Assembly (NCBI GenBank): GCA_013239625.1 | Contig: MU053196.1 | Coordinates: forward strand, 62,001-126,000 | Direction: 5' to 3' | Length of the DNA stretch: 64,000 bases | Source of the DNA: Lama guanicoe | Taxonomy: Eukaryota | In this document: piece after piece, positions 1,795 to 1,988 of the stretch | How the letters are laid out: every line of letters begins with the position of its first letter | Position numbering within the stretch: the first letter of the stretch is position 1 | Notes under the pieces: model-generated | What the model saw: the letters and a program-made list of their open reading frames with translations, nothing else | Database searches by the model: none | Told to the model about the DNA's origin: nothing | Program-made: the position numbers and the translations under genes

Positions 1795-1988
1795 GCCCCA
1801 GGAGCCCACCTGTACAAGTGGTCCATCCCCCGGGCACCCACCTGTACAAGCGGTCCATCCCCCGGGTGCCCATCTGTAAACAAGCGGTCCATCCCCCGGG
1901 CACCCACCTGTACAAGCAGACCATCCCCCGGGAGCCCACCTGTACAAGCGGTCCACCCCCCGGGCGCCCACCTGTACAAGCAGTCCAT
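1795..1988. repeat. Minisatellite, 6 x 32 bp (one copy 34 bp), unit CCCCCGGGCRCCCACCTGTACAAGCRGTCCAT, spanning the CUL2 exon 4 donor
   Basis: Units at 1795-1826, 1827-1858, 1859-1892, 1893-1924, 1925-1956 and 1957-1988. Confidence 0.97.

Follow-up and report, generated by a model that had tools for sequence, protein, structure and literature searches.

Minisatellites whose first unit lies over an exon-intron boundary are known in the human genes F7, CBS, IFI6, LMNB2, and PDGF, as set out in the accessible portion of a study of F7 (PMC1557585). F7 is the best studied of these. Its intron 7 carries a 37-bp VNTR of 5-9 copies, the first of which straddles the boundary with the exon, so that the donor TGG/gtgggt is repeated. 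Splicing takes the most upstream donor alone, even where the decoys are stronger, and leaves the in-frame pseudo-sites unused. Each of the pseudo-sites is functional after the upstream sites have been destroyed. Pseudo-sites with consensus values of 82-91 do not compete, and only perfect consensus pseudo-sites do, taking 70-90% of splicing; the average consensus value for authentic donors is given as 82.96. The same portion of the study reports no secondary structure that would explain this behavior of the F7 array (PMC1557585).

The other members of the class behave in two ways. The LMNB2 and PDGF arrays use the authentic site only, whereas in IFI6 and CBS the authentic site and two proximal pseudo-sites are used (PMC1557585, same portion). 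The CBS array is a polymorphic 31-bp VNTR, given as c.1444_1467+7(16_21) in the available part of PMC2630376. When strong consensus donors are duplicated, the intron-proximal (downstream) site wins, at about 100% for separations of at least 45 nt, according to an excerpt of PMC3413131. In PLP/DM20, G-rich elements between two competing donors enhance the upstream donor through hnRNP H/F (PMC1919487, in excerpt). Nature offers few arrays that repeat a working donor, and each is an experiment in how one site is selected by the spliceosome from several near-identical ones. The published cases conflict, F7, LMNB2, and PDGF being silent and CBS and IFI6 leaky, and they also conflict with the rule for duplicated consensus donors.

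Here, we describe a further case of the F7/CBS class, located in CUL2 of the guanaco, Lama guanicoe. The window, meaning the whole 64,000-nucleotide stretch of DNA that was analyzed, holds the start of the CUL2 coding sequence on the minus strand, with the following features:

10959..11099, minus strand: CUL2 start-codon exon, with the ATG at 11077-11075, acceptor cacag/ and donor CTC/gtatcc.
7467..7569, minus strand: CUL2 coding exon that precedes the array exon (..DIYALC..HLHK), 103 nt, donor AAG/gtgagt.
1972..2066, minus strand: CUL2 coding exon ('exon 4'), 95 nt, residues 75-105, ending in phase 2 (..TAC AG/).
1795..1988, minus strand: minisatellite of six units (32, 32, 32, 34, 32, and 32 nt), 78-94% identical, G-rich on the sense strand, 66% G+C.
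1..1794, minus strand: the part of the intron downstream of the array that lies inside the window; the next CUL2 exon is absent.

The exon that carries the array runs from 2066 to 1972 and is bounded by the acceptor ttccacacag/AGAGTT upstream and by /gtgggcgc downstream. Its translation, RVLESEE..DYMDCLY, has 30 of 31 identities with residues 75-105 of human cullin-2 (4wqo_D, E 2.8e-16), and cullin-2 makes up 13 of the 15 PDB sequences matched by this translation at E<=1. Splicing the three window exons together gives an N-terminus of 105 residues that is the exact start of three of 123 collected proteins, two from alpaca (Vicugna pacos, P0003 and P0077) and one from dromedary (Camelus dromedarius, P0004). 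This exact match marks the window as camelid. The first-pass annotation was right to assign the gene to CUL2. Among the coding exons of the gene, the one with the array comes third. The ATG exon (11099..10959) is preceded by an acceptor of its own, which implies one or more non-coding exons further upstream; counted with these, the array exon is number four or later, in keeping with the name 'exon 4'. The following CUL2 exon (YLNTQF..) was sought in window positions 1..1795 and is absent there, so the intron that contains the array is longer than 1971 nt.

Several other features were observed elsewhere in the window. A compound microsatellite, (TA)23(AC)7, lies at 3030-3089 in the intron upstream of the array exon. 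A stretch at about 60-180 on the minus strand, in the remaining intron sequence, resembles a MIR-type ancient mammalian repeat. A CpG island at 31651-33300 (31651-32350: 76% G+C, 91 CpG) is broken by the only N gap of the window, at 32390-32649, and may be the CUL2 promoter and first exon. A larger second CpG island lies at 48801-50650 (72% G+C, 227 CpG); within it, a 49-bp unit is repeated in tandem 2.6 times (48904-49029). Four matches to the tRNA model barely exceed the Rfam threshold (37.5-38.7 bits), at 7672-7739 (+), 34277-34349 (+), 40754-40825 (-), and 42206-42278 (+). These are probably the heads of tRNA-derived SINEs and not tRNA genes; one of them comes within about 100 nt of the DIYALC exon, on its upstream side.

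The array consists of several head-to-tail copies of a unit in the 10-100 bp range and is thus a minisatellite. Tandem Repeats Finder reports it at 1796-1988 with a period of 32, 6.0 copies, 85% matches, and a score of 284, and gives an alternative row with a period of 98, 1.9 copies, and a score of 287. These are the two top-scoring rows among the four tandem-repeat rows with a score of at least 80 in the whole 64-kb window. A separate repeat search recovered six copies at spacings of 32, 32, 34, 32, and 32. On the sense strand the units occupy 1988-1957, 1956-1925, 1924-1893, 1892-1859, 1858-1827, and 1826-1795, with unit 4 (1892-1859) reaching 34 nt owing to a TT insertion. Unit 1 starts with the last 17 nt of the exon and continues with the first 15 nt of the intron, and units 2-6 follow head to tail within the intron. 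The 14-mer CTTGTACAGGTGGG occurs exactly five times, always on the minus strand, against 0.49 +/- 0.69 expected from dinucleotide shuffles, and none of 100 such shuffles reached a count of five.

Because the first unit includes the authentic exon end and its donor, the donor sequence recurs in the intron. CAG/GT is found with last exon bases at 1972 (native), 1940, 1908, 1842, and 1810, and the copy at 1874 reads CAG/AT. The resulting donor series, with coordinates covering -3..+6, is:

1966..1974, minus strand: native donor, CAG/GTGGGC, last exon base 1972.
1934..1942, minus strand: decoy donor +32, CAG/GTGGGC, last base 1940; its use would shift the frame.
1902..1910, minus strand: decoy donor +64, CAG/GTGGGT, last base 1908; its use would shift the frame.
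1868..1876, minus strand: dead copy +98, CAG/ATGGGC, last base 1874; the unit carries the TT insertion.
1836..1844, minus strand: decoy donor +130, CAG/GTGGGT, last base 1842; its use would shift the frame.
1804..1812, minus strand: decoy donor +162, CAG/GTGGGC, last base 1810; in frame, 54 extra residues, no stop.

The four intact decoys are identical to the native donor from -3 to +5. All three sense frames are open through the array, and the exon frame runs without a stop across its whole length. The donor core, AGGTGGGC, resembles part of the classical minisatellite 'core' of Jeffreys; F7 also repeats gtgggt. The anatomy proposed by the first-pass annotation, namely an array at 1795-1988 built of 17 nt of exon and 15 nt of intron with four intact decoys and one dead copy, was borne out by Tandem Repeats Finder and by the alignment of the units, and its frame arithmetic for +32, +64, and +130 was correct. 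That annotation had presented the arrangement as unusual, and here it must be corrected: the accessible portion of PMC1557585 already places F7, CBS, IFI6, LMNB2, and PDGF in the same class, so that the arrangement itself is known.

The aligned units differ at nine variable columns and one 2-nt indel. Five of the nine variable columns fall inside CpG, spread over three CpG dinucleotides, and one of these CpGs contains the C/T difference at +6. The 'stronger' decoys are, on this account, products of CpG decay. The exon copy reads GACTGC (Asp-Cys), and units 2, 4, and 5 read GACCGC, which suggests that most units derive from an internal copy that had already mutated. Each unit also contains the palindromes TGTACA and CCCGGG. 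Such self-complementary units could favor slippage on the DNA level as well.

F7 is one close point of comparison for the layout of the CUL2 array. In both, the first unit lies over the boundary, the unit is G-rich, some decoys are in frame, and the spacing is alike (37 nt in F7 and 32 nt in CUL2), with an almost identical donor core, TGG/gtgggt in F7 and CAG/gtgggc or CAG/gtgggt in CUL2. The exon share of the unit differs, however, being 4 nt in F7 and 17 nt in CUL2. The F7 decoys are identical to the authentic site, whereas in CUL2 the units have drifted apart to 78-94% identity, two decoys being stronger (+6 T) and one dead. The copy number of F7 is known to vary and its splicing has been tested in minigenes.

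CBS is closer in its unit, which has 31 bp against 32 bp in CUL2 and a similarly large exon share (24+7 nt in CBS, 17+15 nt in CUL2), and it is a precedent for the idea that copy number tunes output, as well as for the putative VNTR status that the first-pass annotation gave the CUL2 array. It differs in having 16-21 copies (15-20 by the figure in PMC1557585), compared with six in CUL2, and in the two pseudo-sites reported as used. IFI6 (6-16) intron 2, LMNB2, and PDGF intron 4 share with CUL2 a first monomer over the boundary and a repeated donor. LMNB2 differs in its 100 bp unit and 10-15 copies, and PDGF in its 81 bp unit and 16-18 copies, with no decoy used in either. IFI6 has 25 pseudo-sites and uses two decoys. 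PLP/DM20 has no tandem repeat and resembles the CUL2 array in having G runs between alternative 5' splice sites, where hnRNP H/F favor the upstream donor; such binding to the GGGGG runs of CUL2 is only proposed.

The reading that we consider the probable one is that of a minisatellite in the intron, of the same kind as in F7 and CBS, with a dominant native donor. It would have arisen by tandem duplication of a 32-bp piece over the CUL2 exon 4/intron 4 boundary, with the real donor in unit 1 and units 2-6 as intronic copies containing four intact pseudo-donors and a dead one. The array would most likely behave as in F7. The native, most upstream donor would almost always be chosen, the pseudo-donors would leave with the intron, and CUL2 output would be little affected by the array. 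Three factors could give the native donor priority. The first, which we infer here and which has been demonstrated for F7, is 5'-to-3' order, whereby the first adequate donor after the acceptor would be taken. The second would be the G runs, which could enhance splicing from their position downstream of the native donor and of which some would fall inside the lengthened exon for any decoy. The third would be the TGTACA and CCCGGG palindromes: because both occur in each unit, pairing is predicted among the decoy units, which would hide their donors.

Donor strength was approximated in two ways, by U1 duplex energies (a simple model with a motif for the 5' end of U1) and by consensus-value increments taken from the F7 paper. 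In the duplex model, the native, +32, and +162 donors each score -10.3 kcal/mol and the dead copy at +98 scores -3.6 kcal/mol. The +64 and +130 donors score -12.5 kcal/mol, which is better than the native site; the consensus scores -14.0 kcal/mol. In this simple model, the expectation that decoys with T at +6 pair better with U1, and that two decoys are at least as strong as the native site, is upheld. If an additive score is assumed, the F7-paper increments (74, 82.2, 91, and 100) would put CAG/gtgggt at about 83, which would fall inside the F7 non-competing range and near the average for authentic sites, 82.96. As the best-studied precedent, F7 suggests that these decoys would not compete.

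Folding predictions point the same way in part. In the model, exon plus array folds better than shuffled sequence (z = -3.1), and one of 100 shuffles folds as well. The predicted minimum-energy fold joins units 2-3 chiefly to units 5-6, enclosing the dead unit 4, and has the native donor base-paired to unit 2. The predicted cost of opening -3..+6 is 4.8-5.7 kcal/mol at the native donor compared with 9.3-14.2 kcal/mol at those four decoys that are intact. Local folding gives the native donor an advantage in openness over +32 and +64 of about 25-85 fold, over +130 of 2-55 fold, and also over +162, the least accessible donor, but only when pair spans of at least 80 nt are allowed; at a 40-nt pairing span, native, +32, and +64 are similarly accessible. 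Because this advantage vanishes at the shorter span, and because the minimum-energy fold engages the native donor in pairing, we dropped the firm claim that RNA structure explains the choice of site by itself. There are two runs of at least three G per unit, 12 in total, and all lie downstream of the native donor. By the PLP/DM20 precedent, the effect of G runs between donors would be to keep the ladder silent, not to activate it. The role that the first-pass annotation gave to hnRNP F/H at the GGGGG run of each unit is plausible.

Junction use was also approached through proteins. The four camelid CUL2 protein models (P0002, P0003, P0004, and P0077) all continue as DCLY/R-YLNTQF or DCLY/S-DRGG, as expected from the native donor, and DCLYRYLNTQ is kept in 116 of 122 collected CUL2-type proteins; gene models follow protein homology and would choose the native junction anyway, and databases and contigs drop rare isoforms. 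Among the 122 collected proteins with DCLY, the array-coded WAPGG follows DCLY only in the read-through translation made here (P0001). A protein search with the 127-aa sense read-through frame gave one match among 31 candidates, a camel CUL2 fragment, and no array-coded protein. With the 90-aa read-through, none of the longer proteins among the best 120 of 320 matches reached into the array. The plus-strand ORF at 1486-1989 gave no matches among 35 candidates. The plus-strand ORF at 1424-1876, a weak query with only about 28 array residues, gave no array match against 1.84 billion representatives; its single match was a 2387-aa repetitive protein aligned over residues 39-78, outside the array.

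Two of these camelid proteins, both public gene models, have further peculiarities. The alpaca model P0077 (682 aa) joins the native donor to a later exon (DCLY/SDRGGEDPN) and skips about 63 residues. The dromedary model P0004 (752 aa) has a 27-residue insertion after DVFQK that is absent from the alpaca models.

The array appears so far only in a camelid. When metagenome contigs were scanned for a degenerate pattern of the exon end, 18 loci came up, of which 16 were chance matches to the pattern and two were CUL2 orthologues (L013 and L015). Both orthologues are vertebrate host DNA within metagenome assemblies, and the intron before this exon is very short in L015, where only about 80 nt separate it from the previous CUL2 exon. 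At the same junction, L013 has the donor CAG/GTAAGC and L015 has CAG/GTAACA, and neither of these two distant species has a tandem repeat within about 800 nt on each side. Judged from the sequences of these two distant orthologues, the array does not seem to be a general feature of vertebrate CUL2. Literature searches on CUL2 with minisatellite and on camel CUL2 returned no paper on a CUL2 array among the matches listed.

Sequencing runs were scored on words sampled from the 1201-base stretch 1300-2500, in a listing of 24 runs. Fourteen DNA runs under four organism labels contained 0.82-0.89 of the sampled words, a measure of word sharing only that says nothing on copy number. The RNA runs (five on record and one guessed) contained 0.07-0.23 of the sampled words, which is no measure of expression or of decoy use.

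Against dominance of the native donor stands the possibility, put forward in the first-pass annotation, that the ladder is leaky, which we hold to be distinctly less likely, though a serious contender. Here, the proximal decoys (+32, +64, and perhaps +130) would enter a measurable share of transcripts, the frameshift would lead to NMD, and the length or sequence of the array would set the amount of productive CUL2 mRNA. The match of four intact donors to the native site from -3 to +5 and the better U1 pairing of +64 and +130 (-12.5 compared with -10.3 kcal/mol) are consistent with this, and exons lengthened to 127-257 nt would not be out of the ordinary. The RNA runs that share some of the sampled words are a lead only. 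It is reported, going by the title of Lievers 2001, that the CBS 31-bp VNTR is linked to reduced CBS activity. Two of the five class genes, CBS and IFI6, use two proximal pseudo-sites, CBS being the closest in unit size (PMC1557585, accessible portion), and the CBS repeat is polymorphic (PMC2630376, available part). The intron-proximal rule for strong consensus sites also counts against dominance of the native donor (PMC3413131, excerpt). These points are opposed by the silence of the F7, LMNB2, and PDGF arrays (PMC1557585, accessible portion), by the native junction in camelid CUL2 models and the 116 of 122 proteins that keep DCLYRYLNTQ, and by protein searches in which the read-through frames found no array-coded protein. 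The G runs and the predicted pairing would favor the native site. Moreover, since CUL2 encodes a conserved core ligase scaffold, errors in its splicing should come at a cost, and so would a large loss to NMD.

The open frame allows for an in-frame isoform, in which the last donor, +162, would be used and 54 residues (WAPGG...MDHLYR) would be inserted after residue 105, a point within the N-terminal part of CUL2 covered by the 186-residue fragment chain 4wqo_D. The distance of 162 nt is divisible by 3, no stop interrupts the exon frame anywhere in the array, and an intron-proximal preference is found among strong duplicated sites (PMC3413131, excerpt). The CUL2 sites are sub-consensus, however, and in F7 the in-frame pseudo-sites are unused (PMC1557585, accessible portion). 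The insertion is absent among the best 120 of 320 matches and from two further protein searches, and five G runs would fall inside the extended exon. The +162 donor is the least accessible in local folding, with a mixed result for global opening energy: it is among the costliest donors to open when exon, array, and 100 nt are folded, but the cheapest of the four decoys in the 2140..1600 transcript. We regard such an isoform as very improbable.

Equally hard to credit is an assembly artefact affecting the copy number or the array itself. Tandem arrays are indeed prone to copy-number errors and no run contains all of the sampled words of 1300-2500 (best 0.89), but this array has only 193 bp, its units differ at nine columns and one indel so that ordinary reads can place each unit, its flanks are unique with the nearest N gap at 32390, and the 14 DNA runs under four organism labels, as weak evidence, share 0.82-0.89 of the sampled words.

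Dominance of the native donor remains the reading we prefer, and the CUL2 array adds to the known class two decoys with better U1 pairing, one naturally dead decoy, and a host gene that encodes a conserved core ligase scaffold. Silent decoys would lend support, in a second gene and lineage, to the principle that the most upstream site wins. If they are leaky, the array would be a heritable modifier of CUL2 dosage, and with it of the VHL-HIF pathway, in camelids.

A bolder idea, which we put forward as improbable, is that of a camelid-specific donor ladder that silences itself. The palindromes and G runs would keep four functional decoys out of reach, including two that surpass the native site in strength, and changes to the array would divert CUL2 transcripts to frameshifted, degraded mRNA. 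The triggers would then be copy number, unit sequence (with +6 in a decaying CpG), and the level of hnRNP H/F. Such a ladder would be a natural test of 'first site wins', as in F7, against 'intron-proximal site wins' in the presence of stronger downstream decoys. Through it, the dosage of the VHL-HIF ligase scaffold would vary and be inherited within a lineage to which high-altitude animals belong.
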